Assembly: GCA_964016885.1 (NCBI GenBank)
Contig: CAXHJY010000552.1
Coordinates: 1 to 64,000, forward strand
Length of the DNA: 64,000 nt
Reading direction: 5' to 3'
From: Eledone cirrhosa
Taxonomy: Eukaryota
Of this stretch, positions 5,072 to 63,209 are shown piece after piece. Both the position numbers and the translations under genes were made by a program. Below the pieces are notes generated by a model, which saw only the letters and a program-made list of their open reading frames with translations, made no database searches and had not been told where the DNA came from. Numbering within the stretch: the stretch's first letter is position 1; the number at the start of each line of letters is the position of its first letter.

Positions 5072-5154
<83 letters not shown>

Positions 5155-18937: not shown

Positions 18938-19028
18938 TATTTTGCTCAACACATGTTGCCTGGTCCAGGAATTGAACCCCCAATCTTATGATCATGACTC
19001 TAACTCCTTAACAACTAGACCACACCCT
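18938..19028 (-). mobile_element. tRNA-derived SINE head fragment
   Basis: The - strand reads GTGTGGTCTAGTTGTTAAGG..GGGTTCAATTCCTGG..TTGAGCAAAATACTT. Confidence 0.7.
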
Positions 19029-19743
19029 TCACAAATAGATAACTGATACTTATAAAATGATTTATCTCCACTGTATTGCTTTCTAGCATTGGCACAATGC
19101 TAGAAATCAGTATCATTTTCTGACAGGACTGGGTCAATGAAACTGCTCCCACACAGATGTTCACTGGAACTATTTTTGTCAACCCACGAAGTATGATAAG
19201 CAAAGTTTAAAGTTCAGTTTAACAAAGTTCAAAGTTCGGTTTAGCAAAAATTAAACTCTGAACATTATTTAAACCTTAAGTCAGCCCTGATCAGCCTTAG
19301 GATCAACAACATTCCATCCCTTGACTACATCCCATCATTTTCTGTATTTGGGATTACATTGTCCAATCTACCATTTTTCTTAAAGGATATGGCTCTTATT
19401 TCTAGTTGGTCAAATGGCTACAGAGAGATGCAGATGGTTAGGTATCTTATGTCATATTTGGAGCTATAAGAACCTGATCCCCCAGAATTTTATCCTCGTA
19501 TTTTCATAATACAAAAATAGGGTATTTCGACAAAACAAGAGCTAAATGGGTGAAAAACAAATAAATGTGTGATTACTATTGTATTATTATATTTTAGTAT
19601 ATTTAAGGTAGGATGAAAGTAACTTGTTCTGAAATTCCTTTATTTAAATATAAAATTATAATCTTTAATCATTACATATCTTTGGTACTGCTTATGCTGT
19701 TAATATTTGATAGTTGTTATGATGCAAATATCTGATAATCATT

Positions 19744-22700
19744 ATGGTGCTAACATCTTTGGTAGTCATAGTGGTACTAACATCTTTGGTAGTCATAGTG
19801 GTACTAACATCTTTGGTAGTCATAGTGGTGCTAACATCTTTGATAGTCATAGTGGTGCTAACATCTTTGGTAGTCATAGTGGTGCTAACATCTTTGGTAG
19901 TCATAGTGGTGCTAACATCTTTGGTAGTCATAGTGGTGCTAACATCTTTGGTAGTCATAGTGGTGCTAACATCTTTGGTAGTCATAGTGGTGCTAACATC
20001 TTTGGTAGTCATAGTGGTGCTAACATCTTTGGTAGTCATAGTGGTGCAAACATCTTTGGTAGTTATAGTGGTGCTAACATCTTTGGTAGTCATAGTGGTG
20101 CTAACATCTTTGGTAGTTATAGTGGTGCTAACATCTTTGGTAGTTATAGTGGTGCTAACATCTTTGATAGTCATAGTGGTGCTAACATCTTTGGTAGTTA
20201 TAGTGGTGCTAACATCTTTGGTAGTTATAGTGGTGCTAACATCTTTGGTAGTCATAGTGGTGCTAACATCTTTCGTAGTTCTAGTGGTGCTAACATCTTT
20301 CGTAGTTCTAGTGGTGCTAACATCTTTGGTAGTCATAGTGGTGCTAACATCTTTGGTAGTTATAGTGGTGTTAATATCTTTGGTAGTTATAGTGGTGCTA
20401 ACATCTTTGATAGTCATAGTGGTGCTAACATCTTTGGTAGTTATAGTGGTGCTAACATCTTTGATAGTCATAGTGGTGCTAACATCTTTGATAGTCATAG
20501 TGGTGCTAACATCTTTGATAGTCATAGTGGTGCTAACATCTTTGGTAGTCATAGTGGTGCTAACATCTTTGGTAGTCATAGTGGTGCTAACATCTTTGGT
20601 AGTCATAGTGGTGCTAACATCTTTGGTAGTCATAGTGGTGCTAACATCTTTGGTAGTTATAGTGGTGCTAACATCTTTGGTAGTTATAGTGGTGCTAACA
20701 TCTTTGGTAGTTATAGTGGTGCTAACATCTTTGGTAGTTATAGTGGTGCTAACATCTTTGGTAGTTATAGTGGTGCTAACGTCTTTGATAGTCATAGTGG
20801 TGCTAACATCTTTGGTAGTCATAGTGGTGCTAACATCTTTGGTAGTTCTAGTGGTGCTAACATCTTTGATAGTCATAGTGGTGCTAACATCTTTGGTAGT
20901 CATAGTGGTGCTAACATCTTTGGTAGTCATAGTGGTGCTAACATCTTTCGTAGTTCTAGTGGTGCTAACATCTTTGGTAGTCATAGTGGTGCTAACATCT
21001 TTGGTAGTTCTAGTGGTGCTAACATCTTTGGTAGTTATAGTGGTGCTAACATCTTTGATAGTTATAGTGGTGCTAACATCTTTGGTAGTTATAGTGGTGC
21101 TAACATCTTTGGTAGTTATAGTGGTGCTAACATCTTTGGTAGTCATAGTGGTGCTAACATCTTTGGTAGTTATAGTGGTGCTAACATCTTTGGTAGTCAT
21201 AGTGGTGCTAACATCTTTGGTAGTCATAGTGGTGCTAACATCTTTGGTAGTTCTAGTGGTGCTAACATCTTTGGTAGTCATAGTGGTGCTAACATCTTTG
21301 GTAGTTCTAGTGGTGCTAACATCTTTGATAGTTATAGTGGTGTTCACATCTTTGATAGTTATAGTGGTGCTAACATCTTTGGTAGTTATAGTGGTGCTAA
21401 CATCTTTGGTAGTCATAGTGGTGCTAACATCTTTGGTAGTTATAGTGGTGTTCACATCTTTGATAGTTATAGTGGTGCTAAACTCTTTGGTAGTTATAGT
21501 GGTGCTAACATCTTTGGTAGTTATAGTGGTGCTAACATCTTTGGGAGTTATAGTGGTGCTAACATCTTTGGTAGTTATAGTGGTGCTAACGTCTTTGGTA
21601 GTTATAGTGGTGCTAACATCTTTGGTAGTTATAGTGGTGCTAACATCTTTGGTAGTTATAGTGGTGCTAACATCTTTGATAGTCATAGTGGTGCTAACAT
21701 CTTTGGTGGTCATAGTGGTGCTAACGTCTTTGGTAGTTATAGTGGTGTTCACATCTTTGGTAGTTATAGTGGTGCTAACGTCTTTGGTAGTTATAGTGGT
21801 GCTAACGTCTTTGGTAGTTATAGTGGTGCTAACGTCTTTGATAGTCATAGTGGTGCTAACATCTTTGGTAGTTATAGTGGTGTTAATATCTTTCGTAGTC
21901 ATAGTGGTGCTAACGTCTTTGGTAGTCATAGTGGAACTAACATATTTGGTAGTTATAGTGGTGCTAACATATTTGGTAGTTATAGTGGTGCTAAGATATT
22001 TGGTAGTTATAGTGGTGCTAACATCTTTGGTAGTTATAGTGGTGTTAATATCTTTGGTAGTCATAGTGGTGCTAACGTCTTTGGTAGTCATAGTGGTGCT
22101 AACGTCTTTGGTAGTCATAGTGGTGCTAACATCTTTGGTAGTTATAGTGGTGTTAATATCTTTCGTAGTCATAGTGGTGCTAACGTCTTTGGTAGTCATA
22201 GTGGAACTAACATATTTGGTAGTTATAGTGGTGCTAACATATTTGGTAGTTATAGTGGTGCTAAGATATTTGGTAGTTATAGTGGTGCTAACATCTTTGG
22301 TAGTTATAGTGGTGCTAATATCTTTGGTAGTCATAGTGGTGCTAACGTCTTTGGTAGTCATAGTGGTGCTAACATCTTTGGTAGTTATAGTGGTGATAAC
22401 ATCTTTGGTAGTTATAGTGGTGCTAACATCTTTGGTAGTTATAGTGGTGCTAACATCTTTGGTAGTTATAGTGGTGCTAACATCTTTGGTAGTTATAGTG
22501 GTGCTAACATCTTTGGTAGTTATAGTGGTGTTAATATCTTTGGTAGTCATAGTGGTGCTAACGTCTTTGGTAGTCATAGTGGTGCTAACATCTTTGGTAG
22601 TTATAGTGGTGCTAACATCTTTGGTAGTTATAGTGGTGCTAACATCTTTGGTAGTTATAGTGGTGCAAACATCTTTGGTAGTTATAGTGGTGCTAACATC

Positions 22701-25700
22701 TTTGGTAGTTATAGTGGTGCTAACGTCTTTGGTAGTTATAGTGGTGTTAACGTCTTTGGTAGTTATAGTGGTGCTAACGTTTTTGGTAGTTATAGTGGTG
22801 CTAACATCTTTGGTAGTTATAGTGGTGCTAACGTCTTCGGTAGTTATAGTGGTGCTAACATCTTCGGTAGTTATAGTGGTGTTAACGTCTTTGGTAGTTA
22901 TAGTGGTGCTAACGTCTTTGGTAGTTATAGTGGAGTTAACATCTTTAGTAGTTATAGTGGTGTTAACGTCTTTGGTAGTTATAGTGGTGTTAACGTCTTT
23001 GGTAGATATAGTGGTACTAACGCCTTTGGTAGTTATAGTGGTGTTAACGTCTTTAGTAGTTATAGTGGTGTTAACGTCTTTAGTAGTTATAGTGGTGTTA
23101 ACGTCTTTGGTAGTTATAGTGGTGCTAACGCCTTTGGTAGTTATAGTGGTGCTAACATCTTTGGTAGTTATAGTGGTGCTAACGTCTTCGGTAGTTATAG
23201 TAGTGCTAACGTCTTCGGTAGTTATAGTGGTGCTAACATCTTTGGTAGTTCTAGTGGTGCTAACATCTTTGGTAGTTCTAGTGGTGCTAACATCTTTGGT
23301 AGTTATAATGGTGTTAACGTCTTTGGTAGTTATAGTGGTGCTAACGTCGTTGGTAGTTATAGTGGTGCTAACGTCGTTGGTAGTTATAGTGGTGCTAACG
23401 GCTTTGGTAGTTATAGTGGTGCTAACATCTTTGGTAGTTATAGTGGTGCTAACATCTTTGGTAGTTATAGTGGTGCTAACATTTTTGGTAGTTATAGTGG
23501 TGCTAACATCTTTGGTAGTTATAGTGGTGCTAACGTCGTTGGTAGTTATAGTGGTGTTAACGTCTTTGGTAGTTATAGTGGTGCTAACGTCTTTGGTAGT
23601 TATAGTGGTGCTAACATCTTTGGTAGTTATAGTGGTGCTAACGTCTTTGGTAGTTAGAGTGGTGCTAACGTCGTTGGTAGTTATAGGGGTGCTAACGTCT
23701 TTGGTAGTTATAGTGGTGCTAACGTCTTTGGTAGTTATAGTGGTGCTAACGTTTTTGGTAGTTATAGTGGTGCTAACGTCTTTGGTAGTTATAGTGGTGC
23801 TAACGTCTTTGGTAGTTATAGTGGTGCTAACGTCGTTGGTAGTTATAGTGGTGCTAACGTCTTTGGTAGTTATAGTGGTGCTAACGTCTTTGGTAGTTAT
23901 AGTGGTGCTAACGTCTTTGGTAGTTATAGTGGTGCTAACATCTTTGGTAGTTATAGTGGTGCTAACATCTTTGGTAGTTATAGTGGTGCTAACATCTTTG
24001 GTAGTTATAGTGGTGCTAACATCTTTGGTAGTTATAGTGGTGCTAACATCTTTGGTAGTCATAGTGGTGCTAACATCTTTGGTAGTCATAGTGGTGCTAA
24101 CATCTTTGGTAGTTATAGTGGTGCTAACATCTTTGGTAGTTATAGTGGTGCTAACGTCTTTGGTAGTTATAGTGGTGCTAACGTCTTTGGTAGTTATAGT
24201 GGTGCTAACGTCTTTGGTAGTTATAGTGGTGCTAACATCTTTGGTAGTTATAGTGGTGCTAACATCTTTGATAGTCATAGTGGTGCTAACATCTTTGGTA
24301 GTCATAGTGGTGCTAACGTCTTTGGTAGTTATAGTGGTGCTAACGTCTTTGGTAGTTATAGTGGTGCTAACGTCTTTGGTAGTCATAGTGGTGCTAACAT
24401 CTTTGGTAGTTATAGTGGTGTTAATATCTTTCGTAGTCATAGTGGTGCTAACGTCTTTGGTAGTTATAGTGGTGCTAACATCTTTGGTAGTTATAGTGGT
24501 GCTAAGATCTTTGGTAGTCATAGTGGTGCTAACATCTTTGGTAGTTATAGTGGTGCTAACATCTTTGGTAGTTATAGTGGTGCTAACATCTTTGGTAGTT
24601 ATAGTGGTGCTAACATATTTGGTAGTTATAGTGGTGCTAACATCTTTGGTAGTTATAGTGGTGTTAATATCTTTGGTAGTTATAGTGGTGCTAACATCTT
24701 TGGTAGTTATAGTGGTGCTAACATCTTTGGTAGTTATAGTGGTGCTAACATCATTGGTAGTCATAGTGGTGCTAACATCTTTGGTAGTTATAGTGGTGCT
24801 AATATCTTTGGTAGTTATAGTGGTGTTAACGTCTTTGCTAGTTATAGTGGTGCTAACATCTTTGGTAGTTATAGAGGTGCTAACATCTTTGGTAGTTATA
24901 GTGGTGCTAATGTCTTTGGTAGTTATAGTGGTGTTAATATCTTTGGTAGTTATAGTGGTGCTAACATCTTTGGTAGTTATAGTGGTGCTAAGATCTTTGG
25001 TAGTTATAGTGGTGCTAACATCTTTGGTAGTTATAGTGGTGTTAATATCTTTGGTAGTCATAGTGGTGCTAACGTCTTTGGTAGTCATAGTGGTGCTAAC
25101 GTCTTTGGTAGTCATAGTGGTGCTAACATCTTTGGTAGTTATAGTGGTGCTAACATCTTTGGTAGTTATAGTGGTGCTAACATCTTTGGTAGTTATAGTG
25201 GTGCTAACATCTTTGGTAGTTATAGTGGTGCTAACATCTTTGGTAGTTATAGTGGTGTTAACATCTTTGGTAGTTATAGTGGTGCTAACATCTTTGGTAG
25301 TTATAGTGGTGTTAATATCTTTGGTAGTAATAGTGGTGTTAACGTCTTTGGTAGTCATAGTGGTGCTAACATCTTTGGTAGTTATAGTGGTGCTAACATC
25401 TTTGGTAGTTATAGTGGTGTTAATATCTTTGGTAGTTATAGTGGTGTTAATATCTTTGGTAGTTATAGTGGTGCTAACGTCTTTGGTAGTTATAGTGGTG
25501 CTAACATCTTTAGTAGTTATAGTGGTGTTAATGTCTTTGGTAGTTATAGTGGTGCTAACGTCTTTGGTAGTTATAGTGGTGTTAACGTCTTTAGTAGTTA
25601 TAGTGGTGCTAACATATTTGGTAGTTATAGTGGTGCTAACGTCTTTGGTAGTTATAGTGGTGTTAACGTCTTTGGTAGTTATAGTGGTGCTAACATCTTT

Positions 25701-28700
25701 GGTAGTTATAATGGTGTTAACGTCTTTGGTAGTTATAGTGGTGCTAACGTCGTTGGTAGTTATAGTGGTGCTAACGTCGTTGGTAGTTATAGTGGTGCTA
25801 ACGGCTTTGGTAGTTATAGTGGTGCTAACATCTTTGGTAGTTATAGTGGTGCTAACATCTTTGGTAGTTATAGTGGTGCTAACATTTTTGGTAGTTATAG
25901 TGGTGCTAACATCTTTGGTAGTTATAGTGGTGCTAACGTCGTTGGTAGTTATAATGGTGTTAACGTCTTTGGTAGTTATAGTGGTGCTAACGTCTTTGGT
26001 AGTTATAGTGGTGCTAACATCTTTGGTAGTTATAGTGGTGCTAACGTCTTTGGTAGTTAGAGTGGTGCTAACGTCGTTGGTAGTTATAGTGGTGCTAACG
26101 TCTTTGGTAGTTATAGTGGTGCTAACGTCTTTGGTAGTTATAGTGGTGCTAACGTTTTTGGTAGTTATAGTGGTGTTAACGTCTTTGGTAGTTATAGTGG
26201 TGCTAACGTCTTTGGTAGTTATAGTGGTGCTAACGTCTTTGGGAGTTATAGTGGTGCTAACGTCTTTGGTAGTTATAGTGGTGCTAACATCTTTGGTAGT
26301 TATAGTGGTGCTAACATCTTTGATAGTCATAGTGGTGCTAACATCTTTGGTAGTCATAGTGGTGCTAACATCTTTGGTAGTCATAGTGGTGCTAACATCT
26401 TTGGTAGTCATAGTGGTGCTAACATCTTTGGTAGTCATAGTGGTGCTAACATCTTTGGTAGTTATAGTGGTGCTAACATCTTTGGTAGTTATAGTGGTGC
26501 TAACGTCTTTGGTAGTTATAGTGGTGCTAACGTCTTTGGGAGTTATAGTGGTGCTAACGTCTTTGGTAGTTATAGTGGTGCTAACATCTTTGGTAGTTAT
26601 AGTGGTGCTAACATCTTTGATAGTCATAGTGGTGCTAACATCTTTGGTAGTCATAGTGGTGCTAACATCTTTGGTAGTCATAGTGGTGCTAACATCTTTG
26701 GTAGTTATAGTGGTGCTAACATCTTTGGTAGTTATAGTGGTGCTAACGTCTTTGGTAGTTATAGTGGTGCTAACGTCTTTGGTAGTTATAGTGGTGCTAA
26801 CGTCTTTGGTAGTTATAGTGGTGCTAACATCTTTGGTAGTTATAGTGGTGCTAACATCTTTGATAGTCATAGTGGTGTTAATATCTTTGGTATTTATAGT
26901 GGTGCTAACATCTTTGGTAGTTATAGTGGTGTTAACATCTTTGGTAGTTATAGTGGTGCTAACATCTTTGGTAGTTATAGTGGTTCTAACGTCTTTGGTA
27001 GTTATAGTGGTGCTAACGTCTTTGGTAGTTATAGTGGAGCTAACGTCTTTGGTAGTTATAGTGGTGCTAACATCTTTGGTAGTTATAGTGGTGCTAACAT
27101 CTTTGGTAGTTATAGTGGTGCTAACATCTTTGGTAGTTATAGTGGTGCTAACATCTTTGGTAGTTATAGTGGTGCTAACATCTTTGGTAGTCATAGTGGT
27201 GCTAACATCTTTGGTAGTCATAGTGGTGCTAACATCTTTGGTAGTCATAGTGGTGCTAACATCTTTGGTAGTTATAGTGGTGCTAACATCTTTGGTAGTT
27301 ATAGTGGTGCTAACGTCTTTGGTAGTTATAGTGGTGCTAACGTCTTTGGGAGTTATAGTGGTGCTAACGTCTTTGGTAGTTATAGTGGTGCTAACATCTT
27401 TGGTAGTTATAGTGGTGCTAACATCATTGGTAGTCATAGTGGTGCTAACGTCTTTGGTAGTTATAGTGGTGCTAACATCATTGGTAGTCATAGTGGTGCT
27501 AACATCTTTGGTAGTTATAGTGGTGCTAATATCTTTGGTAGTTATAGTGGTGCTAATATCTTTGGTAGTTATAGTGGTGTTAACGTCTTTGCTAGTTATA
27601 GTGGTGCTAACATCTTTGGTAGTTATAGTGGTGCTAACATCTTTGGTAGTTATAGTGGTGCTAACATCTTTGTTAGTTATAGTGGTGCTAACATATTTGG
27701 TAGTTATAGTGGTGCTAACATATTTGGTAGTTATAGTGGTGTTAATATCTTTGGTAGTTATAGTGGTGCTAACATCTTTGGTAGTTATAGTGGTGCTAAC
27801 ATCTTTGGTAGTTATAGTGGTGCTAACATCTTTGGTAGTTATAGTGGTGCTAACATCTTTGGTAGTTATAGTGGTGTTAATATCTTTGGTAGTTATAGTG
27901 GTGCTAACATCTTTGGTAGTTATAGTGGTGCTAACATCTTTGGTAGTTATAGTGGTGCTAACATCATTGGTAGTCATAGTGGTGCTAACATCTTTGGTAG
28001 TTATAGTGGTGCTAATATCTTTGGTAGTTATAGTGGTGTTAACGTCTTTGGGAGTTATAGTGGTGCTAACATCTTTGGTAGTTATAGTGGTGCTAACATC
28101 TTTGGTAGTTATAGTGGTGCTAATGTCTTTGGTAGTTATAGTGGTGTTAATATCTTTGGTAGTTATAGTGGTGCTAACATCTTTGGTAGTTATAGTGGTG
28201 CTAAGATCTTTGGTAGTTATAGTGGTGCTAACATCTTTGGTAGTTATAGTGGTGTTAATATCTTTGGGAGTCATAGTGGTGCTAACGTCTTTGGTAGTCA
28301 TAGTGGTGCCAACGTCTTTGGTAGTTATAGTGGTGCTAACATCTTTGGTAGTTATAGTGGTGCTAACATCTTTGGTAGTTATAGTGGTGCTAACATCTTT
28401 GGTAGTTATAGTGGTGCTAACATCTTTGGTAGTTATAGTGGTGCTAACATCTTTGGTAGTTATAGTGGTGTTAATATCTTTGGTAGTCATAGTGGTGTTA
28501 ACGTCTTTGGTAGTCATAGTGGTGCTAACATCTTTGGTAGTTATAGTGGTGCTAACATCTTTGGTAGTTATAGTGGTGTTAATATCTTTGGTAGTTATAG
28601 TGGTGTTAATATCTTTGGTAGTTATAGTGGTGCTAACGTCTTTGGTAGTTATAGTGGTGCTAACGTCTTTGGTAGTTATAGTGGTGTTAACGTCTTTAGT

Positions 28701-31700
28701 AGTTATAGTGGTGTTAACGTCTTTGGTAGTTATAGTGGTGCTAACATCTTTGGTAGTTATAGTGGTGCTAACGTCTTTGGTAGTTATAGTGGTGTTAATG
28801 TCTTTGGTAGTTATAGTGGTGCTAATATCTTCGGTAGTTATAGTGGTGCTAACATCTTTGGTAGTTATAGTGGTGCTAACATCTTTGGTAGTTATAGTGG
28901 TGCTAACATCATTGGTAGTCATAGTGGTGCTAACATCTTTGGTAGTTATAGTGGTGCTAATATCTTTGGTAGTTATAGTGGTGTTAACGTCTTTGCTAGT
29001 TATAGTGGTGCTAACATCTTTGGTAGTTATAGTGGTGCTAATATCTTTGGTAGTTATAGTGGTGTTAACGTCTTTGCTAGTTATAGTGGTGCTAACATCT
29101 TTGGTAGTTATAGTGGTGCTAACATCTTTGGTAGTTATAGTGGTGCTAACGTTGTTGGTAGTTATAGTGGTGTTAACGTCTTTGGTAGTTATAGTGGTGC
29201 TAACGTCTTTGGTAGTTATAGTGGTGCTAACGTCGTTGGTAGTTATAGTGGTGCTAACGTCGTTGGTAGTTATAGTGGTGCTAACGTCTTTGGTAGTTAT
29301 AGTGGTGCTAACGTCTTTGGTCGTTATAGTGGTGCTAACATCTTTGGTAGTTATAGTGGTGCTAACATCTTTGGTAGTTATAGTGGTGTTAACATCTTTG
29401 GTAGTTATAGTGGTGTTAACATCTTTGGTAGTTATAGTGGTGTTAACATCTTTGGTAGTTATAGTGGTGTTAACATCTTTGGTATTTATAGTGGTGCAAA
29501 CGTCTTCGGTAGTTATAGTGGTGTTAACATCTTTGGTAGTTATAGTGGTGCTAACATCTTTGGTAGTTATAGTGGTGCTAACGTCTTTGGTAGTTATAGT
29601 GGTGCTAACGTCTTTGGTAGTTATAGTGGTGCTAACGTCTTTGGTAGTTATAGTGGTGCTAACGTCTTTGGTAGTTATAGTGGTGCTAACATCTTTGGTA
29701 GTTATAGTGGTGCTAACATCTTTGGTAGTTATAGTGGTGCTAACATCTTTGGTTGTTATAGTGGTGCTAACATCTTTGGTAGTTATAGTGGTGCTAACAT
29801 CTTTGGTAGTTATAGTGGTGCTAACATCTTTGATAGTTATAGTGGTGTTAACGTCTTTGGTAGTTATAGTGGTGTTCACGTCTTTAGTAGTTCTAGTGGT
29901 GCTAACGTATTTCGTAGTTCTAGTGGTGTTAAGGTCTTTGGTGGTTACAGTGGTGTTAACATCTTTGGTATTTATAGTGGTGCAAACGTCTTTGGTAGTT
30001 ATAGTGGTGTTAACATCTTTGGTAGTTATAGTGGTGTTAACGTCTTTGGTAGTTATAGTGGTGTTCACGTCTTTAGAAGTTATAGTGGTGCTAACGTCTT
30101 TAGTTGTTATAGTGGTGCTAACGTCTTTGGTAGTTATAGTGGTGCTAACGTCTTTGGTAGTTATAGTGGTGTTAACGTCTTTGGTAGTTATAGTGGTGTT
30201 AACGTCTTTGGTAGTTATAGTGGTGTTAACGTCTTTGGTAGTTATAGTGGTGTTAACGTCTTTGGTAGTTATAGTGGTGTTAACGTCTTTGGTAGTTATG
30301 GTGGTGCTAACGTCTTTGGTAGTTATGGTGGTGCTAACGTCTTTGGTAGTTATAGTGGTGCTAACGTCTTTGGTAGTTATAATGGTTTTAACGTCTTTGG
30401 TAGTTATAGTGGTGCTATCATCTTTGGTAGTTATAGTGGTGTTAATATCTTTGGTAGTCATAGTGGTGCTAACGTCTTTGGTAGCCATAGTGGTGCTAAC
30501 ATCTTTGGTAGTTATAGTGGTGCTAACATCTTTGGTAGTTATAGTGGTGCTAACATCTTTGGTAGTTATAGTGGTGCTAACATCTTTGGTAGTTATCGTG
30601 GTGCTAACATCTTTGGTAGTTATCGTGGTGCTAACATCTTTGGTAGTTATAGTGGTGCTAACGTCTTTGGTAGTTATAGTGGTGCTAACGTCTTTGGTAG
30701 TTATAGTGGTGCTAAAGTCTTTGGTAGTTATAGTGGTGTTAATATCTTTCGTAGTCATAGTGGTGCTAACGTCTTTGGTAGTCATAGTGGTGCAAACGTC
30801 TTCGGTAGTTATAGTGGTGTTAACATCTTTGGTAGTTATAGTGGTGCTAACATCTTTGGTAGTTATAGTGGTGCTAACATCTTTGGTAGTTATAGTGGTG
30901 CTAACATCTTTGGTAGTTATAGTGGTGCTAACATCTTTGGTAGTTATAGTGGTGCTAACATCTTTGGTAGTTATAGTGGTGCTAACATCTTTGGTAGTTA
31001 TAGTGGTGTTAACTTCTTTGGTAGTTATAGTGGTGTTCACGTCTTTAGTAGTTCTTGTGGTGCTAACGTATTTCGTAGTTCTAGTGGTGTTAAGGTCTTT
31101 GGTGGTTACAGTGGTGTTAACATCTTTGGTATTTATAGTGGTGCAAACGTCTTTGGTAGTTCTAGTGGTGTTAATGTCTTTGGTAGTTATAGTGGTGTTA
31201 ACATCTTTGGTAGTTATAGTGGTGTTAACGTCTTTGGTAGTTATAGTGGTGTTCACGTCTTTAGTAGTTATAGTGGTGCTAACGTCTTTAGTTGTTATAG
31301 TGGTGCTAACGTCTTTGGTTGTTATAGTGGTGCTAACGTCTTTGGTAGTTATAGTGGTGTTAACGTCTTTGGTAGTTATAGTGGTGTTAACGTCTTTGGT
31401 AGTTATAGTGGTGTTAACGTCTTTGGTAGTTATGGTGGTGCTAACGTCTTTGGTAGTTATGGTGGTGCTAACGTCTTTGGTAGTTATAGTGGTGCTAACG
31501 TCTTTGGTAGTTATAATGGTTTTATCGTCTTTGGTAGTTATAGTGGTGCTAACATCTTTGGTAGTTATAGTGGTGTTAATATCTTTGGTAGTCATAGTGG
31601 TGCTAACGTCTTTGGTAGTCATAGTGGTGCTAACATCTTTGGTAGTTATAGTGGTGCTAACATCTTTGGTAGTTATAGTGGTGCTAACATCTTTGGTAGT

Positions 31701-40700: not shown

Positions 40701-43700
40701 GCTAACGTCTTTGGTAGTTATATTGGTGCTAACATCTTTGGTAGTTATATTGGTGCTAACATCTTTGGTAGTTATAGTGGTGCTAACATCTTTGGTAGTT
40801 ATAGTGGTGCTAACGTCTTTGGTAGTTATAGTGGTGCTAACATCTTTGGTAGTTTTAGTGGTGCTAACATCTTTGGTAGTTATAATGGTGCTAACATCTT
40901 TGGTAGTTATAGTGGTGCTAACATCTTTGGTAGTTATAGTGGTGCTAACATCTTTGGTAGTTATAGTGGTGCTAACATCTTTGGTAGTTATAGTGGTGCT
41001 AACATCTTTGGTAGTTATAGTGGTGCTAACATCTTTGGTAGTTATAGTGGTGCTAACATCTTTGGTAGTTATAGTGGTGCTAACATCTTTGATAGTCATA
41101 GTGGTGCTAACATCTTTGGTAGTTATAGTGGTGCTAACATCTTTGGTAGTTATAGTGGTTCTAACGTCTTTGGTAGTTCTAGTGGTGTTAACATCTTTGG
41201 TAGTTATAATGGTGCTAACATCTTTGGTAGTTATAATGGTGCTAACATCTTGGGTAGATATAGTGGTGTTAACGTCTTTGGTAGTTCTAGTGGTGCTAAC
41301 ATCTTTGGTAGTTATACTGGTGCTAACGTCTTTGGTAGTTATAGTGGTGCTAACATCTTTGGTAGTTCTAGTGGTGCTAACGTCTTTAGTAGTTATAATG
41401 GTTCTAACATCTTTGGTAGTTATAGTGGTGTTAACATCTTTGGTAGTTATAGTGGTGCTAACATCTTTGGTCGTTATAGAGGTGGTAACTTCTTTGGTAG
41501 TTATAGTGGTGCTAACTTCTTTGGTAGTTATATTGGTGATAACGTCTTTGGTAGTTATAGTGGTGTTAACATCTTTCGTAGTTATAGTGGTGTTAACGTC
41601 TTTTGTAGTTATAGTGGTGCTAACATCTTTCGTAGTTATAGTGGTGCTAACGTCTTTGGTAGTTATAGTGGTGTTAACGTCTTTGGTAGTTATAGTGGTG
41701 TTAACATCTTTGGTAGTTATAGTGGTGCTAACGTCTTTGGTAGTTATAGTGGTGTTAACATCTTTGGTAGTTATAGTGGTGTTAACATCTTTGGTAGTTC
41801 TAGTGGTGCTAACATCTTTGGTAGTTATAGTGGTGCTAACGTCTTTGGTAGTTATAGTGGTGTTAACGTCTTTGGTAGTTATAGTGGTGTTAACATCTTT
41901 GGTAATTATAGTGGTGCTAACGTCGTTGGTAGTTATAGTGGTGTTAACATCTTTGGTAGTTCCAGTGGTGTTAACATCTTTGGTAGTTATAGTGGTGTTA
42001 ACGTCTTTGGTGGTTATAGTGGTGCTAACGTCGTTGGTAGTTATAGTGGTGTTAACGTCTTTGGTAGTTATAGTGGTGTTAACATCTTTGGTAATTATAG
42101 TGGTGATAACGTCGTTGGTAGTTATAGTGGTGTTAACATCTTTGGTAGTTATAGTGGTGTTAACATCTTTGGTAATTCTAGTGGTTTTAACATCTTTGGT
42201 AGTTATAGTGGTGCTAACATCTTTGGTAGTTATAGTGGTGCTAACGTCTTTGGTAGTTATAGTGGTGCTAACATCTTTGGTAGTTTTAGTGGTGCTAACA
42301 TCTTTGGTAGTTATAATGGTGCTAACATCTTTGGTAGTTATAATGGTGCTAACATCTTTGGTAGTTATAGTGGTGCTAACATCTTTGGTAGTTATAGTGG
42401 TGCTAACATCTTTGGTAGTTATAGTGGTGCTAACATCTTTGGTAGTTATAGTGGTGCTAACATCTTTGGTAGTTATAGTGGTGCTAACATCTTTGGTAGT
42501 TATAGTGGTGCTAACATCTTTGATAGTCATAGTGGTGCTAACATCTTTGGGAGTTATAGTGGTGCTAACGTCTTTGGTAGTTATAGTGGTGCTAACATCT
42601 TTGGTAGTTATAGTGGTTCTAACGTCTTTGGTAGTTCTAGTGGTGTTAACATCTTTGGTAGTTATAATGGTGCTAACATCTTTGGTAGTTATAATGGTGC
42701 TAACATCTTGGGTAGATATAGTGGTGTTAACGTCTTTGGTAGTTCTAGTGGTGCTAACATCTTTGGTAGTTATAGTGGTGCTAACGTCTTTGGTAGTTAT
42801 AGTGGTGCTAACATCTTTGGTAGTTCTAGTGGTGCTAACGTCTTTAGTAGTTATAATGGTTCTAACATCTTTGGTAGTTATAGTGGTGTTAACATATTTG
42901 GTAGTTATAGTGGTGCTAACATCTTTGGTCGTTATAGAGGTGCTAACTTCTTTGGTAGTTATAGTGGTGCTAACTTCTTTGGTAGTTATAGTGGTGATAA
43001 CGTCTTTGGTAGTTATAGTGGTGTTAACATCTTTCGTAGTTATAGTGGTGTTAACGTCTTTTGTAGTTATAGTGGTGCTAACATCTTTCGTAGTTATAGT
43101 GGTGCTAACGTCTTTGGTAGTTATAGTGGTGTTAACGTCTTTGGTAGTTATAGTGGTGTTAACATCTTTGGTAGTTATAGTGGTGCTAACGTCTTTGGTA
43201 GTTATAGTGGTGTTAACATCTTTGGTAGTTCTAGTGGTGCTAACATCTTTGGTAGTTATAGTGGTGCTAACGTCTTTGGTAGTTATAGTGGTGTTAACAT
43301 CTTTGGTAATTATAGTGGTGCTAACGTCGTTGGTAGTTATAGTGGTGTTAACATCTTTGGTAGTTCCAGTGGTGTTAACATCTTTGGTAGTTATAGTGGT
43401 GTTAACGTCTTTGGTGGTTATAGTGGTGCTAACGTCGTTGGTAGTTATAGTGGTGTTAACGTCTTTGGTAGTTATAGTGGTGTTAACATCTTTGGTAATT
43501 ATAGTGGTGATAACGTCGTTGGTAGTTATAGTGGTGTTAACATCTTTGGTAGTTATAGTGGTGTTAACATCTTTGGTAGTTATAGTGGTGTTAACATCTT
43601 TGGTAGTTCTAGTGGTGTTAACGTCTTTGGTAGTTATAGTAGTGCTAACGTCTTTGGTAGTTATAGTGGTGCTAACATCTTTGGTAGTTATAGTCGTGTT

Positions 43701-46700
43701 AACGTCTTTGGTAGTTATAGTGGTGTTAACATCTTTGGTAGTTATAGTGGTGTTAACGTTTTTGGTAGTTATAGTGGTGTTAACGTCTTTGGTAGTTATA
43801 GTGGTGTTAACGTCTTTGGTAGTTATAGTGGTGCTAACGTCTTTGGTAGTTATAGTGGTGCTAACGTCTTTGGTAGTTATAGTGGTGCTAACGTCTTTGG
43901 TAGTTATAGTGGTGTTAACATCTTTGGTAGTTATAGTGGTGCTAACATCTTTGGTAGTTATAATGGTGCTAACATCTTTGGTAGTTATAATGGTGCTAAC
44001 ATCTTTGGTAGTTATAGTGGTTCTAACGTCTTTGGTAGTTCTAGTGGTGTTAACATCTTTGGTAGTTATAATGGTGCTAACATCTTGGGTAGATATAGTG
44101 GTGTTAACGTCTTTGGTAGTTATAGTGGTGCTAACGTCTTTGGTAGTTATAGTGGTGCTAACATCTTTGGTAGTTCTAGTGGTGCTAACGTCTTTAGTAG
44201 TTATAATGGTTCTAACATCTTTGGTAGTTATAGTGGTGTTAACATCTTTGGTAGTTATAGTGGTGCTAACATCTTTGGTCGTTATAGAGGTGCTAACTTC
44301 TTTGGTAGTTATAGTGGTGCTAACTTCTTTGGTAGTTATAGTGGTGATAACGTCTTTGGTAGTTATAGTGGTGTTAACATCTTTCGTAGTTATAGTGGTG
44401 TTAACGTCTTTTGTAGTTATAGTGGTGCTAACATCTTTCGTAGTTATAGTGGTGCTAACGTCTTTGGTAGTTATAGTGGTGTTAACGTCTTTGGTAGTTA
44501 TAGTGGTGTTAACATCTTTGGTAGTTATAGTGGTGCTAACGTCTTTGGTAGTTATAGTGGTGTTAACATCTTTGGTAGTTCTAGTGGTGCTAACATCTTT
44601 GGTAGTTATAGTGGTGTTAACGTCTTTGGTAGTTATAGTGGTGTTAACATCTTTGGTAATTATAGTGGTGCTAACGTCGTTGGTAGTTATAGTGGTGTTA
44701 ACATCTTTGGTAGTTCCAGTGGTGTTAACATCTTTGGTAGTTATAGTGGTGTTAACGTCTTTGGTGGTTATAGTGGTGCTAACGTCGTTGGTAGTTATAG
44801 TGGTGTTAACGTCTTTGGTAGTTATAGTGGTGTTAACATCTTTGGTAATTATAGTGGTGATAACGTCGTTGGTAGTTATAGTGGTGATAACGTCGTTGGT
44901 AGTTATAGTGGTGTTAACATCTTTGGTAGTTATAGTGGTGTTAACATCTTTGGTAATTCTAGTGGTTTTAACATCTTTGGTAGTTATAGTGGTGCTAACG
45001 TCTTTGGTAGTTATAGTTGTGCTAACGTCTTTGGTAGTTATATTGGTGCTAACATCTTTGGTAGTTATATTGGTGCTAACATCTTTGGTAGTTATAGTGG
45101 TGCTAACATCTTTGGTAGTTATAGTGGTGCTAACGTCTTTGGTAGTTATAGTGGTGCTAACATCTTTGGTAGTTTTAGTGGTGCTAACATCTTTGGTAGT
45201 TATAATGGTGCTAACAGCTTTGGTAGTTATAGTGGTGCTAACATCTTTGGTAGTTATAGTGGTGCTAACATCTTTGGTAGTTATAGTGGTGCTAACATCT
45301 TTGGTAGTTATAGTGGTGCTAACATCTTTGGTAGTTATAGTGGTGCTAACATCTTTGGTAGTTATAGTGGTGCTAACATCTTTGATAGTCATAGTGGTGC
45401 TAACATCTTTGGTAGTTATAGTGGTGCTAACGTCTTTGGTAGTTATAGTGGTGCTAACATCTTTGGTAGTTATAGTGGTTCTAACGTCTTTGGTAGTTCT
45501 AGTGGTGTTAACATCTTTGGTAGTTATAATGGTGCTAACATCTTTGGTAGTTATAATGGTGCTAACATCTTGGGTAGATATAGTGGTGTTAACGTCTTTG
45601 GTAGTTCTAGTGGTGCTAACATCTTTGGTAGTTATAGTGGTGCTAACGTCTTTGGTAGTTATAGTGGTGCTAACATCTTTGGTAGTTCTAGTGGTGCTAA
45701 CGTCTTTAGTAGTTATAATGGTTCTAACATCTTTGGTAGTTATAGTGGTGTTAACATATTTGGTAGTTATAGTGGTGCTAACATCTTTGGTCGTTATAGA
45801 GGTGCTAACTTCTTTGGTAGTTATAGTGGTGCTAACTTCTTTGGTAGTTATAGTGGTGATAACGTCTTTGGTAGTTATAGTGGTGTTAACATCTTTCGTA
45901 GTTATAGTGGTGTTAACGTCTTTTGTAGTTATAGTGGTGCTAACATCTTTCGTAGTTATAGTGGTGCTAACGTCTTTGGTAGTTATAGTGGTGTTAACGT
46001 CTTTGGTAGTTATAGTGGTGTTAACATCTTTGGTAGTTATAGTGGTGCTAACGTCTTTGGTAGTTATAGTGGTGTTAACATCTTTGGTAGTTCTAGTGGT
46101 GCTAACATCTTTGGTAGTTATAGTGGTGCTAACGTCTTTGGTAGTTATAGTGGTGTTAACATCTTTGGTAATTATAGTAGTGCTAACGTCGTTGGTAGTT
46201 ATAGTGGTGTTAACATCTTTGGTAGTTCCAGTGGTGCTAACATCTTTGGTAGTTATAGTTGTGCTAACGTCTTTGGTAGTTATATTGGTGCTAACATCTT
46301 TGGTAGTTATATTGGTGCTAACATCTTTGGTAGTTATAGTGGTGCTAACATCTTTGGTAGTTATAGTGGATTTAACGTCTTTGGTAGTTATAGTGGTGCT
46401 AACATCTTTGGTAGTTTTAGTGGTGCTAACATCTTTGGTAGTTATAATGGTGCTAACATCTTTGGTAGTTATAGTGGTGCTAACATCTTTGGTAGTTATA
46501 GTGGTGCTAACATCTTTGGTAGTTATAGTGGTGCTAACATCTTTGGTAGTTATAGTGGTGCTAACATCTTTGGTAGTTATAGTGGTGCTAACATCTTTGG
46601 TAGTTATAGTGGTGCTAACATCTTTGATAGTCATAGTGGTGCTAACATCTTTGGTAGTTATAGTGGTGCTAACGTCTTTGGTAGTTATAGTGGTGCTAAC

Positions 46701-49700
46701 ATCTTTGGTAGTTATAGTGGTTCTAACGTCTTTGGTAGTTCTAGTGGTGTTAACATCTTTGGTAGTTATAATGGTGCTAACATCTTTGGTAGTTATAATG
46801 GTGCTAACATCTTGGGTAGATATAGTGGTGTTAACGTCTTTGGTAGTTCTAGTGGTGCTAACATCTTTGGTAGTTATACTGGTGCTAACGTCTTTGGTAG
46901 TTATAGTGGTGCTAACATCTTTGGTAGTTCTAGTGGTGCTAACGTCTTTAGTAGTTATAATGGTTCTAACATCTTTGGTAGTTATAGTGGTGTTAACATA
47001 TTTGGTAGTTATAGTGGTGCTAACATCTTTGGTCGTTATAGAGGTGCTAACTTCTTTGGTAGTTATAGTGGTGCTAACTTCTTTGGTAGTTATAGTGGTG
47101 CTAACTTCTTTGGTAGTTATAGTGGTGATAACGTCTTTGGTAGTTATAGTGGTGTTAACATCTTTCGTAGTTATAGTGGTGTTAACGTCTTTTGTAGTTA
47201 TAGTGGTGCTAACATCTTTCGTAGTTATAGTGGTGCTAACGTCTTTGGTAGTTATAGTGGTGTTAACGTCTTTGGTAGTTATAGTGGTGTTAACATCTTT
47301 GGTAGTTATAGTGGTGCTGACGTCTTTGGTAGTTATAGTGGTGTTAACATCTTTGGTAGTTCTAGTGGTGCTAACATCTTTGGTAGTTATAGTGGTGCTA
47401 ACGTCTTTGGTAGTTATAGTGGTGTTAACATCTTTGGTAATTATAGTGGTGCTAACGTCGTTGGTAGTTATAGTGGTGTTAACATCTTTGGTAGTTCCAG
47501 TGGTGTTAACATCTTTGGTAGTTATAGTGGTGTTAACGTCTTTGGTGGTTATAGTGGTGCTAACGTCGTTGGTAGTTATAGTGGTGTTAACGTCTTTGGT
47601 AGTTATAGTGGTGTTAACATCTTTGGTAATTATAGTGGTGATAACGTCGTTGGTAGTTATAGTGGTGTTAACATCTTTGGTAGTTATAGTGGTGTTAACA
47701 TCTTTGGTAGTTCTAGTGGTGTTAACGTCTTTGGTAGTTATAGTAGTGCTAACGTCTTTGGTAGTTATAGTGGTGCTAACATCTTTGGTAGTTATAGTCG
47801 TGTTAACGTCTTTGGTAGTTATAGTGGTGTTAACATCTTTGGTAGTTATAGTGGTGTTAACGTTTTTGGTAGTTATAGTGGTGTTAACGTCTTTGGTAGT
47901 TATAGTGGTGTTAACGTCTTTGGTAGTTATAGTGGTGCTAACGTCTTTGGTAGTTATAGTGGTGCTAACGTCTTTGGTAGTTATAGTGGTGTTAACATCT
48001 TTGGTAGTTATAGTGGTGCTAACATCTTTGGTAGTTATAATGGTGCTAACATCTTTGGTAGTTATAGTGGTGCTAACATCTTTGGTAGTTATAGTTGTGC
48101 TAACGTCTTTGGTAGTTATATTGGTGCTAACATCTTTGGTAGTTATAGTGGTGCTAACATCTTTGGTAGTTATAGTAGTGCTCACATCTTTGGTAGTTAT
48201 AGTGGTGCTCACATCTTTGGTAGTTATAGTGGTGCTCACATCTTTGGTAGTTATAGTGGTGCTAACATCTTTGGTAGTTATAGTGGTTCTAACGTCTTTG
48301 GTAGTTCTAGTGGTGTTAACATCTTTGGTAGTTATAATGGTGCTAACATCTTTGGTAGTTATAATGGTGCTAACATCTTGGGTAGATATAGTGGTGTTAA
48401 CGTCTTTGGTAGTTCTAGTGGTGCTAACATCTTTGGTAGTTATAGTGGTGCTAACATCTTTGGTAGTTATAGTGGTGCTAACGTCTTTGGTAGTTATAAT
48501 GGTTCTAACATCTTTGGTAATTATACTGGTGTTAACATCTTTGGTAATTATAGTGGTGTTAACATCTTTGGTAGTTATAGTGGTGCTAACGTCTTTGGTA
48601 GTTATAGTGGTGCTAACTTCTTTGGTTGTTATAGTGGTGCTAACGTCTTTGGTAGTTATAGTGGTGTTAACATCTTTCGTAGTTATAGTGGTGTTAACGT
48701 CTTTTGTAGTTATAGTGGTGCTAACATCTTTCGTAGTTATAGTGGTGCTAACGTCTTTGGTAGTTATAGTGGTGTTAACGTCTTTGGTAGTTATAGTGGT
48801 GTTAACATCTTTGGTAGTTATAGTGGTGCTAACGTCTTTGGTAGTTATAGTGGTGTTAACATCTTTGGTAGTTCTAGTGGTGCTAACATCTTTGGTAGTT
48901 ATAGTGGTGCTAACGTCTTTGGTAGTTATAGTGGTGTTAACGTCTTTGGTATTTATAGTGGTGTTAACATCTTTGGTAATTATAGTGGTGCTAACGTCGT
49001 TGGTAGTTATAGTGGTGTTAACATCTTTGGTAGTTCCAGTGGTGTTAACATCTTTGGTAGTTATAGTGGTGTTAACGTCTTTGGTGGTTATAGTGGTGCT
49101 AACGTCGTTGGTAGTTATAGTGGTGTTAACGTCTTTGGTAGTTATAGTGGTGTTAACATCTTTGGTAATTATAGTGGTGATAACGTCGTTGGTAGTTATA
49201 GTGGTGTTAACATCTTTGGTAGTTATAGTGGTGTTAACATCTTTGGTAGTTCTAGTGGTGTTAACGTCTTTGGTAGTTATAGTAGTGCTAACGTCTTTGG
49301 TAGTTATAGTGGTGCTAACATCTTTGGTAGTTATAGTCGTGTTAACGTCTTTGGTAGTTATAGTGGTGTTAACATCTTTGGTAGTTATAGTGGTGTTAAC
49401 GTTTTTGGTAGTTATAGTGGTGTTAACGTCTTTGGTAGTTATAGTGGTGTTAACGTCTTTGGTAGTTATATTGGTGCTAACATCTTTGGTAGTTATAGTG
49501 GTGCTAACGTCTTTGGTAGTTATAGTGGTGCTAACGTCTTTGGTAGTTATAGTGGTGTTAACATCTTTGGTAGTTATAGTGGTGCTAACATCTTTGGTAG
49601 TTATAATGGTGCTAACATCTTTGGTAGTTATAGTGGTGCTAACATCTTTGGTAGTTATAGTTGTGCTAACGTCTTTGGTAGTTATATTGGTGCTAACATC

Positions 49701-51685
49701 TTTGGTAGTTATAGTGGTGCTAACATCTTTGGTAGTTATAGTAGTGCTCACATCTTTGGTAGTTATAGTGGTGCTCACATCTTTGGTAGTTATAGTGGTG
49801 CTCACATCTTTGGTAGTTATAGTGGTGCTAACATCTTTGGTAGTTATAGTGGTTCTAACGTCTTTGGTAGTTCTAGTGGTGTTAACATCTTTGGTAGTTA
49901 TAATGGTGCTAACATCTTTGGTAGTTATAATGGTGCTAACATCTTGGGTAGATATAGTGGTGTTAACGTCTTTGGTAGTTCTAGTGGTGCTAACATCTTT
50001 GGTAGTTCTAGTGGTGCTAACATCTTTGGTAGTTATAGTGGTGCTAACATCTTTGGTAGTTATAGTGGTGCTAACGTCTTTGGTAGTTATAATGGTTCTA
50101 ACATCTTTGGTAATTATAGTGGTGTTAACATCTTTGGTAATTATAGTGGTGTTAACATCTTTGGTAGTTATAGTGGTGCTAACGTCTTTGGTAGTTATAG
50201 TGGTGCTAACTTCTTTGGTTGTTATAGTGGTGCTAACGTCTTTGGTAGTTATAGTGGTGTTAACATCTTTCGTAGTTATAGTGGTGTTAACGTCTTTTGT
50301 AGTTATAGTGGTGCTAACATCTTTCGTAGTTATAGTGGTGCTAACGTCTTTGGTAGTTATAGTGGTGTTAACGTCTTTGGTAGTTATAGTGGTGTTAACA
50401 TCTTTGGTAGTTATAGTGGTGCTAACGTCTTTGGTAGTTATAGTGGTGTTAACATCTTTGGTAGTTCTAGTGGTGATAACGTCTTTGGTAGTTATAGTGG
50501 TGTTAACATCTTTGGTAATTATAGTGGTGCTAACGTCGTTGGTAGTTATAGTGGTGTTAACATCTTTGGTAGTTCCAGTGGTGTTAACGTCTTTGGTAGT
50601 TATAGTAGTCCTAACGTCTTTGGTAGTTATAGTGGTGTTAACGTCTTTGGTAGTTATAGTGGTGTTAACATCTTTGGTAATTATAGTGGTGCTAACGTCG
50701 TTGGTAGTTATAGTGGTGTTAACATCTTTGGTAGGTCTAGTGGTGTTAACGTCTTTGGTAGTTATAATGGTGTTAACATCTTTGGTAGTTCTAGTGGTGC
50801 TAACATCTTTGGTAGTTATAGTGGTACCAAGGTCTTTGGTAGTTATAGTGGTGCTAACGTCTTTGGTAGTAATATTGGTGCTAACGTCTTTGGTAGTTAT
50901 AGTGGTGCTAACGTCTTTGCTAGTTCTATTGGTGCTAACATCTTTGGTAGTTATAGTGGTACCAAGGTCTTTGGTAGTTATAGTGGTGCTAACGTCTTTG
51001 GTAGTTCTAGTGGTGTTAACGTCTTTGGTAGTTCTAGTGGTGCTAACGTCTTTGGTAGTTATAGTGGTGCTCACATGTTTGGTAGTTATAGTGGTGCTAA
51101 CGTCTTTGGTATTTCTAGTGGTGTTAACGTCTTTGGTAGTTATAGTGGTGCTAACATCTTTGGTAGTTATAGTGGTGCTAACATCTTTGGTAGTTATAGT
51201 GGTGCTAACATCTTTGGTAGTTATAGTGGTGCTAACATCTTTGGTAGTTATAGTGGTGCTAACATCTTTGGTAGTTATAGTGGTGCTAACATCTTTGGTA
51301 GTTATAGTGGTGCTCACATGTTTGGTAGTGATAGTGGTGCTAACGTCTTTGGTAGTTATAGTGGTGCTAACGTCTTTGGTAGTTATAGTGATACCAAGGT
51401 CTTTGGTAGTTATAGTGGTACCAAGGTCTTTGGTAGTTATAGTGGTACCAAGGTCTTTGGTAGTTATAGTGGTGCTAACATCTTTGGTAGTTATAGTGGT
51501 GTTAACGTCTTTGGTAGTTCTAGTGGTGCTAACGTCTTTGGTAGTTATAGTGGTGCTCACATGTTTGGTAGTTATAGTGGTGCTAACGTCTTTGGTAGTA
51601 ATAGTGGTGCTAACGTCTTTGGTAGTTATAGTGGTGCTAACGTCTTTGCTAGTTCTAGTGGTGCTAATGTCTTTGATAATAGTTA
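19744..51685. repeat. ~32-kb tandem array of about 1,180 copies of a 27-bp unit, consensus GTGGTGCTAACATCTTTGGTAGTTATA
   Basis: The 27-bp period is directly visible (9-aa period in translation). Units are degenerate at both edges, and only two 1-bp indels are evident (about 33378 and 34319). Confidence 0.99.
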
Positions 51686-51799
51686 GGATGCTAAATGTCT
51701 TACAACTATAATTGTTTGCAAGATGCTCTTTAAAATAAAGTACAAATCCTTGAGTACTAAAAGGAATTATGATTACTATAAGAGAAGAGAGTATGTTCA

Positions 51800-51945
51800 T
51801 GTGGCCTAGTGGCAAGAGTGTTAGGCTTATAATCATAATGTTGTGGGTTCAATCATCAGATCCTTCTGCACATTGTATTCTTGAGCGAGACACTTCATTT
51901 CACATTACTGTACTTCACTCAACTGAAAATTGAGTACCCAAAGCA
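51800..51945 (+). mobile_element. tRNA-derived SINE head
   Basis: Box A TGGCCTAGTGG, box B GGGTTCAATC, core TGTATTCTTGAGCGAGACACTTCATTTCAC. Confidence 0.8.
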
Positions 51946-52229
51946 GCTTGAGATTAACCATCTGACAGATTGACGTCCCACTGAGGGAGAGAGATTATGT
52001 ATTCTATTTTTTAATGCCTCATAAGCCTAGATAAGTTCTGACCTGATGTAACACTAAGCGTGTGACAGACTTTTAAAATAATAAGCAAAGAAAGTGAAAT
52101 TATGATGGCTTTTAGTGAAGAAAATAAAACAAATAAAATATTGATTTATAACCTCAATCTTTGTTTTTAATGACTGAGAGAAATGAAGTGGTTGATCCAA
52201 TGTGTGAAATATTTCTATAATTAGCAGTT

Positions 52230-52480
52230 TTAATACTAACCCACATGAAACTGGCCTTGGTGCAATGATACAAAATTGTCTATTTCAGAGGGTTTATATT
52301 TATCTCAAAACCATTCAAAATAATTTTATGTACAAACTTTTGTTATGTTCCAAACATCAACTTCATAATGAGAAAGTTAGTTATATTTCTAAATCCCTCC
52401 AAATTCTTGACTATTTTCAAAATTGTTTAAAAATCATAAACTGTGTCTTTCATTAGAAAATGGTCATGAAATGGTTAAGT
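52230..52480. repeat. Old non-autonomous DNA-transposon-like repeat, copy 1
   Basis: ATGATACAAAA..TATTTATCT.AAAACC..TCCAAACA.CAACTT.ATAATG..CTAAATCC.TCCAA..CTTTCATTAGA is shared with 54790-55027. Confidence 0.6.
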
Positions 52481-52681
52481 GTTTATGTGACTATTATGGA
52501 CACATTATTGAAGTTTGCTTGTTTTTGTTTCCTATCAAACTAGTATTGCATGTTTATATTTGACTGATGGAAGCATGGCAGCCCCTGTGACTTCTGAAGA
52601 CAGTTTTTAGACTGGGAAGATTCATACAGAATTATAAAGTGGAGTTCATAAACCTATTTGAAGAGAATGCATTTGATTTAA

Positions 52682-60939: not shown

Positions 60940-60962
60940 GTTGGTGGCAAAGAGAGAGGCAC

Positions 60963-63180: not shown

Positions 63181-63209
63181 TTATGTGTGTGTGTGTGTGT
63201 GTGTGTGAA

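Follow-up and report, generated by a model that had tools for sequence, protein, structure and literature searches.

A single-locus 27-nucleotide minisatellite in the qRRM2 intron of an octopod ESRP gene, with ESRP-type words probably present by chance

Does a splicing regulator whose own intron is crowded with words of the kind it binds regulate itself through them, or has a repeat come to spell those words by chance? The question is raised by a stretch of Eledone cirrhosa DNA (the window, which is the first 64 kb of a 91,032-nucleotide (nt) contig, C579, in a genome of 3.0 Gb). It carries part of the gene for the splicing regulator ESRP, and one intron of that gene holds a 32-kb array of 27-nt units, rich in UGGUG on the sense strand. 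An initial annotation proposed that the array is an autoregulatory RNA sponge. Our analysis suggests that it is most probably a locally expanded, single-locus minisatellite in the intron that splits the second quasi-RRM (qRRM2), transcribed and spliced out, in which the ESRP words occur by chance. The array lies within the intron, occupies a single locus, has degenerate edges, changes in length by whole units and contains a 5.6-kb higher-order repeat, and many similar arrays are found in the same genome.

The identity of the host gene is clear. It encodes three quasi-RRMs that are closest to those of ESRP1 together with an N-terminal exonuclease-like domain, as expected of the ESRP/Fusilli/SYM-2 family. 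The best PDB match of the qRRM1 exon was human ESRP1 (E 8e-26), and the top named database matches of the qRRM2 exon were ESRP1-like or fusilli proteins, with Argonauta leading at 93%. The exons are near but not identical to those of Octopus vulgaris, O. sinensis, O. bimaculoides and Argonauta. A Pfam search with the 116-amino-acid (aa) qRRM1 frame found no family. One ESRP copy was found in the genome (part of the search began from a stricter threshold), spread over at least three contigs. The exons of qRRM1 to qRRM3 are on C579, C4 and C1766 hold the 5' exons for the N-terminal part, and about 150 codons at the end of the gene were not located in the genome search. The ESRP residues encoded up to 16970 and from 75784 onward join without a gap; therefore the intron runs from 16971 to 75783 and encloses the array. 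An exon within the array was ruled out on the same grounds. The array begins 2,775 nt past the exon that opens qRRM2 and lies 24 kb from the 3' end of the intron. The initial annotation was thus right to place it 2.8 kb downstream of an RRM2 exon, and the next ESRP exon does lie beyond it.

Tandem Repeats Finder described the array (19745-51675) as 1,182.6 copies of a 27-nt unit with 92% matches and 0% indels, and a unit-by-unit parse gave 1,182 units of 176 distinct types, the commonest occurring 293 times. Just two register shifts, each of a single base, were found (+1 at 33381 and -1 at 34327). The right half is composed of a 206-unit (5.6-kb) higher-order repeat with exact runs of at most 38 units, no strong period above that of the unit marks the left 13 kb, and variant frequencies shift along the array. 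Genome-wide, 162 of 162 exact 39-mer matches and 1,168 of 1,168 unit matches with at most two mismatches fell inside the array. The single locus ruled out a dispersed or centromeric satellite family, and the unit is indeed not scattered over the genome, as the initial annotation needed it to be; yet single-locus arrays turned out to be ordinary here. With head-to-tail units in the 10-60-nt range, one locus, and variant units that record a history of duplication, the array has the characters of a minisatellite. Minisatellites grow by slippage and unequal exchange. The degenerate edge units and the 206-unit higher-order repeat fit growth in place, and slippage and unequal crossing-over at this site would account for the present length.

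It might be asked whether that length is partly an assembly product, which we think quite unlikely and which would alter the site count but not the reading of the array. Reads may fail to bridge the near-identical 5.6-kb repeats of the right half, the gene is spread over several contigs, and C579 both starts and ends in TA-rich microsatellite. Against this, the left 13 kb lacks a strong period of this kind, the 176 distinct units and the changing variant frequencies are unlike a copied block, and contigs of sequencing run X1 tile the left flank up to 19743 without differences.

A period of 9 codons also raises the possibility of a coding repeat: either a plus-strand frame of VLTSLVVIV units, which opens with an ATG at 19744 and ends after 10,655 codons at 51711, or a nested, Thr-rich, mucin-like gene on the minus strand. 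The two register shifts cancel, the plus frame is open throughout, and 67% of variant counts are silent in it (permutation p=0.03). However, the consensus alone leaves three of six frames open, the p value is the lowest among six frames and depends on duplicated variants, and a CpG-type change is the variant met most often. Val, Leu and Ile would account for about three quarters of the product, which makes it implausible. The Thr-rich frame (p=0.14) is interrupted between 34293 and 33401, and stops occur in the GANIFGSYS frame (p=0.95). The clear in-phase stop sits in a stretch already rich in rare variants (4 of 15 singletons), and arrays of periods 35 and 50 are equally free of off-register indels. 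A protein search with 90-aa translations of two of the three open array frames returned nothing at E 1e-10, a weak result for low-complexity queries. Of the explanations considered here, a coding repeat has the most remote chance of being correct.

What, then, do the units offer to ESRP? On the plus strand the array contains TGGTG 1,124 times (overlaps included), GTGGTG 1,035 times and TTTGGTAG 928 times, and the reverse complement of TGGTG occurs there 0 times. GGT is equally one-sided, with 2,254 sense against 6 antisense occurrences, or about 1.9 per unit. Each unit provides one UGGUG junction and a second GGU; the UGG triplets stand singly, at spacings of 12 and 15 nt. At the junction the sequence is UGGUGC or UGGUGU, and TGGTGG appears only 24 times in 32 kb. 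The "about 1,180 UGGUG motifs" of the initial annotation match the number of units and mildly overstate that of the word itself, and the pattern attributed to nearly every unit has both halves intact in 791 of 1,181 (67%).

Arrays of this size proved common elsewhere in the genome. A control sample was taken from chromosome-scale contigs only, with ten ESRP-linked loci excluded; it consisted of 52 evenly chosen 10-kb pieces and 60 further 3-kb pieces (112 in all, 700 kb), and a 10-kb piece was called filled when one array covered at least 9.5 kb. A single array filled 6 of the 52 larger pieces (periods 7, 16, 22, 23, 25 and 46) and 4 of the 60 smaller ones (periods 23, 35, 50 and 227), that is 10/112 pooled (~9%), with a different unit in each. 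Both control arrays that were followed up were single-locus, with 49/49 matches within at least 47 kb on C2 and 16/16 within at least 34 kb on C3. Tandem repeats made up 25-29% of the sample. Giant minisatellites form a large part of this genome. A limited literature search found no report of giant locus-specific minisatellites in a cephalopod or of the ESRP-intron array itself.

The word recurs as well. A 7-nt control array (L015, C4:130,000,001-130,010,000) has 1,058 TGGTG per 10 kb on its minus strand, 3x the density of the ESRP-intron array. Among the 700 1-kb windows of the sample, 22 (in 10 of the 112 pieces) had at least half of the array's TGGTG density, 9 had at least half of its GTGGTG density, and 19 were as GGU-dense as the array or denser. 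TGGTG-dense repeats thus arise at random places in the genome, and the initial annotation's own reservation, that a 5-mer match can be coincidental, was justified. Since giant single-locus arrays are common in this genome, the match to an ESRP word is likely a matter of chance and does not point to a self-regulating sponge. The array is certainly beyond chance as a repeat, and only weakly so as a motif match.

Chance rates were estimated from random non-repeat 27-mers of the genome made circular and from the units of real minisatellites, scored per strand. TGGTG was present on a given strand in 3.1% of random 27-mers, in 15 of 174 strand-units of real minisatellites and in 3 of 74 at periods 20-35; for GTGGTG the corresponding values were 0.75% of random 27-mers and 4 of 174 strand-units. 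Two or more GGT are found in a 27-mer in 4.7% of cases by chance. Three of the twelve hexamers selected by ESRP1 in SELEX (systematic evolution of ligands by exponential enrichment) were compared, and a wider list would raise the chance-match rate.

Several observations weigh against a passive array that matches by chance. First, GTGGTG was present in 0 of 74 strand-units at periods 20-35, and for ESRP alone a match on the sense strand of the motif-binder's own gene would be expected by chance in about 2% of cases. This estimate is the product of ~0.35 (an array within at least 165 kb of the gene) and 0.05, and it assumes that arrays hit introns as often as other places; the genome sample behind it is small (700 kb). 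Secondly, the array is unusually regular, with 2 off-register units in 1,182 as compared with 6-36 per 130-184 units in four control arrays. Thirdly, TGGTG is intact in 92.7% of units, which puts it at the top of the 27 five-mers (the runner-up is intact in 89.9%), and a base-matched test of the motif columns on raw variant counts gave p=0.03; the counts of independent origins with which this value is compared below come from rough clustering. Fourthly, the qRRM2 encoded here retains all of the residues named for the GGU clamp of human ESRP1 (R331, G332, L333, F335, D372, R397, Y398 and E400; PMC10853802), with RGLPF, GDAF and RYIE in the exons. Finally, run X4, from which the transcript evidence is drawn, is possibly from the same study as the assembly.

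Other results stand beside these points. A genome encodes tens of splicing regulators with short motifs, and about one coincidence of this sort would be expected per genome of this kind. Two other control arrays had 0/85 and 1/59 off-register units. In the raw counts, later duplication multiplies a single mutation; on estimated independent mutation origins the motif columns were not better kept (p=0.25), and a per-column conservation test gave p=0.08. The expectation that motif positions would vary less than the rest of the unit finds support in the raw counts but not in the independent origins. In addition, TGGTG is intact less often in the right half, which was duplicated recently (0.88-0.93), than in the left (0.95-0.99), and the edge units have no intact TGGTG. 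Local folding predicted UGGUG to be mostly paired; its unpaired probability of 0.038 falls within the background of the intron (median 0.019, mean 0.111, n=43), which is weak either way. Evidence on motif conservation leans neutral, and the ESRP-type words would have come about without selection on the motif.

ESRP may all the same touch this RNA. GUGGUG is among the ESRP1 SELEX hexamers (PMC4566030), and the initial annotation was right to regard a UGGUG-type word as an ESRP target. The top in vivo ESRP motif is given as UGGUGG (PMC9550651) and the preferred ESRP1 motif as UGGUGGUGG (PMC10853802). With the contact residues kept and 2,254 GGU on offer, binding of ESRP to the nascent intron is plausible; to judge from the sequences of both partners, the protein would likely bind array RNA in vitro. 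Some incidental binding to the nascent intron is plausible and compatible with a passenger array.

Whether such binding could have consequences in cis is the more serious question. ESRP would coat the GGU repeats of its own intron and delay the joining of the qRRM2 exons, and high ESRP would then lower mature ESRP mRNA; the octopod protein would detain the qRRM2 intron through about 2,250 GGU sites, and repeat length would set the ESRP level. In a variant of this scheme the downstream exons would be diverted to back-splicing, on the model of human ESRP1 at DOCK1 intron 1. Intron detention in cis is the best functional alternative, and we consider it unlikely. The retained GGU-contacting residues, the position of TGGTG as the best-kept 5-mer of the unit, the known autoregulation of ESRP1, though at another site, and the precedent of a deep intronic GGU repeat bound by ESRP1 in DOCK1 all argue for it. 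On the other side, DOCK1 has 52 copies of UGGUGGUGG, whereas the array unit has single UGG triplets with 24 UGGUGG in all; equal or higher GGU density was met in the control windows mentioned above; the motif columns show no clear extra conservation; and the spliced contig from run X4 is unbranched at the 3' end of the exon. Among the 20 of 759 matches listed in a limited literature search, none described autoregulation of a splicing factor by way of a satellite within an intron of its own gene.

The exons on either side of the intron also appear to be constitutive. Both are present and adjacent in 13 of 13 aligned cephalopod isoforms, among which rare or decaying forms would escape notice. 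The isoforms differ at a NAGNAG acceptor and toward the C-terminus, and no regulated exon, poison exon or alternative splice site beside the array was found among the 13 isoforms and the X4 contig. The unit itself slightly resembles a 3' splice site. Judged by the branch-point consensus, a branch-point-like YUAAC occurs in 1,072 of 1,182 units and UAG follows 17-18 nt downstream in 1,073. The pyrimidine tract is poor, an earlier AG is present, and splicing to either AG would lead to a stop within three codons. The units were rejected as decoy 3' splice sites, since the X4 contig is unbranched, a weak test.

Transcript evidence came from four sequencing runs aligned to the unique flank at 16835-19743, to the left of the array. 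In run X4, an unbranched contig of 2,284 nt (depth 14.6) matches 16874-16970 without difference at its positions 999-1095 and then departs from the intron. These offsets are what a 78-nt leader followed by about 722 codons of coding sequence and a short trailer would give, and the contig is therefore read as a normally spliced mRNA. We infer that it is the full-length ESRP mRNA with a junction to 75,784; the library type of the run is not on record, and assembled contigs drop rare forms. Over the unique intron sequence 5' of the array, X4 showed just scattered 151-nt pieces at depth 2.3-2.4 as compared with 14.6, a poor measure of level. In the reduced-representation runs X5 and X6, coverage of the flank was limited to dispersed repeats. 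A search of sequencing runs with 19745-29000, which detects near-identical words only and leaves many runs out of reach, listed no RNA dataset and 4 entries from one study and organism (shares 0.06-0.18); these entries say nothing on expression, nor does the lack of other organisms say anything on conservation. The array would be transcribed passively with the ESRP pre-mRNA and then removed by splicing.

The same data bear on a sponge or nuclear focus acting in trans, in which nascent or excised intron RNA would lower free nuclear ESRP. One molecule would carry 1,124 UGGUG and 2,254 GGU, the same order as the 2,178 PTBP1 motifs of PNCTR, and array RNA would arise only in ESRP-expressing cells. 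Introns are short-lived, and just a few nascent copies would be present at two alleles unless the RNA were stabilised, whereas a cell contains about 36 copies of PNCTR, a dedicated transcript that reaches 7-27% of PTBP1 (PMC6224606). TGGTG occurs in the genome at 2.24 per kb per strand, or about 6.7 million per strand, of which the array contributes 0.02%, and the sparse X4 pieces 5' of the array point the same way, although they gauge level poorly. We regard a role in trans as very improbable. The evolved autoregulatory sponge of the initial annotation is thus not borne out: single-locus arrays are ordinary, no regulated exon is nearby, and a nascent intron from one locus would make a poor trans sponge.

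The features of the locus are collected in Table 1.

Table 1. Exons, intron and array features of the Eledone cirrhosa ESRP locus (window coordinates unless marked as contig positions)
Feature	Position	Strand	Basis
ESRP exon opening qRRM1, with acceptors in tandem (NAGNAG, 12987 or 12990)	12987..13097	+	sequence, tblastn, isoforms
ESRP exon, rest of qRRM1	14299..14474	+	sequence, tblastn
ESRP exon on the 5' side of the array intron, encoding the linker and first strand of qRRM2 (RGLPF loop)	16876..16970	+	tblastn, run X4 contig
GT..AG phase-0 intron splitting qRRM2, 58,813 nt, ends at contig position 75,783	16971..64000 within window	+	tblastn, sequence
Degenerate proto-units, two to three, 25-26 nt spacing, UGGUG position not intact	19668..19744	+	sequence; 25-nt tandem match 19702-19758
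Single-locus 27-nt minisatellite, 1,182 units	19745..51675	+	Tandem Repeats Finder, unit parse, genome matches
36-unit stretch bounded by the two register shifts, richer in rare variants (4/15 singletons)	33381..34327	+	unit parse
Degenerate last unit(s), right edge	51676..51713	+	sequence
Next ESRP exon, rest of qRRM2	contig 75,784-75,999	+	tblastn, sequence

Further ESRP exons lie on the same contig at 78,486 and about 80,370. The NAGNAG acceptor at 12984-12989 accounts for the plus and minus Ser isoforms annotated in Octopus ESRP. The array intron also holds a second, small minisatellite (48 nt, 16 copies, contig 68,156-68,910) and, in antisense orientation, a retrotransposon without long terminal repeats (57736..62756, minus strand), which we take to be L1/Tx1-like, with frames of 597 aa (a CCHC-like knuckle) and 1,085 aa (endonuclease, reverse transcriptase and zf-RVT). 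A reverse transcriptase frame of 725 aa (7140-9317, plus strand), with a TA-rich microsatellite on either side, precedes the first ESRP exon of the window. TA/TG microsatellites of 4.5-9 kb are found in several ESRP introns and at the contig ends that break the gene (C4, C1766 and C579), including positions 1-6954 of the window.

If the array is a passenger, it joins the many other giant single-locus minisatellites of the genome and cautions that such arrays often come to contain short words of RNA-binding proteins by chance; the side result that single arrays fill 10 of 112 sampled pieces is possibly the weightier one. If detention in cis were true, repeat-dependent intron detention by ESRP1 would be joined to the autoregulation of splicing factors, with repeat length as a dial for an epithelial splicing regulator, and there would be a hint that splicing can be tuned by the giant arrays in which this genome abounds. 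With protein, motif and intron each defined, the locus makes a clean test case.

Among known systems, the array is closest in form to hypervariable minisatellites (variable number tandem repeats), with which it shares a unit of 10-60 nt, head-to-tail order, one locus, interspersed variants, degenerate edges and higher-order duplication. Typical human minisatellites are far shorter than 32 kb. The array differs from them in this respect, yet it is equalled in length by other arrays of its own genome. As to its setting, the repeats of Drosophila Y introns are bound by proteins encoded by other genes. The Y-linked genes have giant, satellite-filled introns (PMC6508621) and resemble the ESRP locus in that a long tandem repeat lies in an intron and, here presumably, becomes part of the pre-mRNA; those are megabase-sized introns in spermatocytes, whereas the ESRP intron has 59 kb. 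PNCTR resembles the array in that a single long repeat RNA offers one splicing regulator some two thousand short motifs. It differs in being abundant, separately transcribed, shown to bind its regulator and present in a nuclear body (PMC6224606), whereas the array is an intron of the regulator's own gene.

Two comparisons concern ESRP itself. ESRP1 autoregulates at an alternative 5' splice site of exon 12 (PMC9550651; for the fly isoforms, PMC5478600), and there, as with the candidate words here, UGG words in its own pre-mRNA are concerned. However, that site, close to the 3' end, adjoins splice sites in competition and switches a nuclear localisation signal (PMC9550651, PMC5478600), whereas 2.8 kb and 24 kb separate the array from its two flanking exons, both constitutive in the 13 isoforms. 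In human DOCK1 intron 1, ESRP1 binds a GGU repeat with 31 + 21 = 52 copies of UGGUGGUGG over about 5 kb, with evidence from crosslinking and immunoprecipitation (CLIP) and from deletion (PMC10853802). Like it, the array is a GGU-containing repeat deep in a long intron, on the sense strand. The clustering of optimal UGGUGGUGG or UGGUGG motifs typical of DOCK1 is absent from the array, which, in contrast, spreads 1,182 units over 32 kb of the regulator's own gene, with UGG triplets that stand in isolation.

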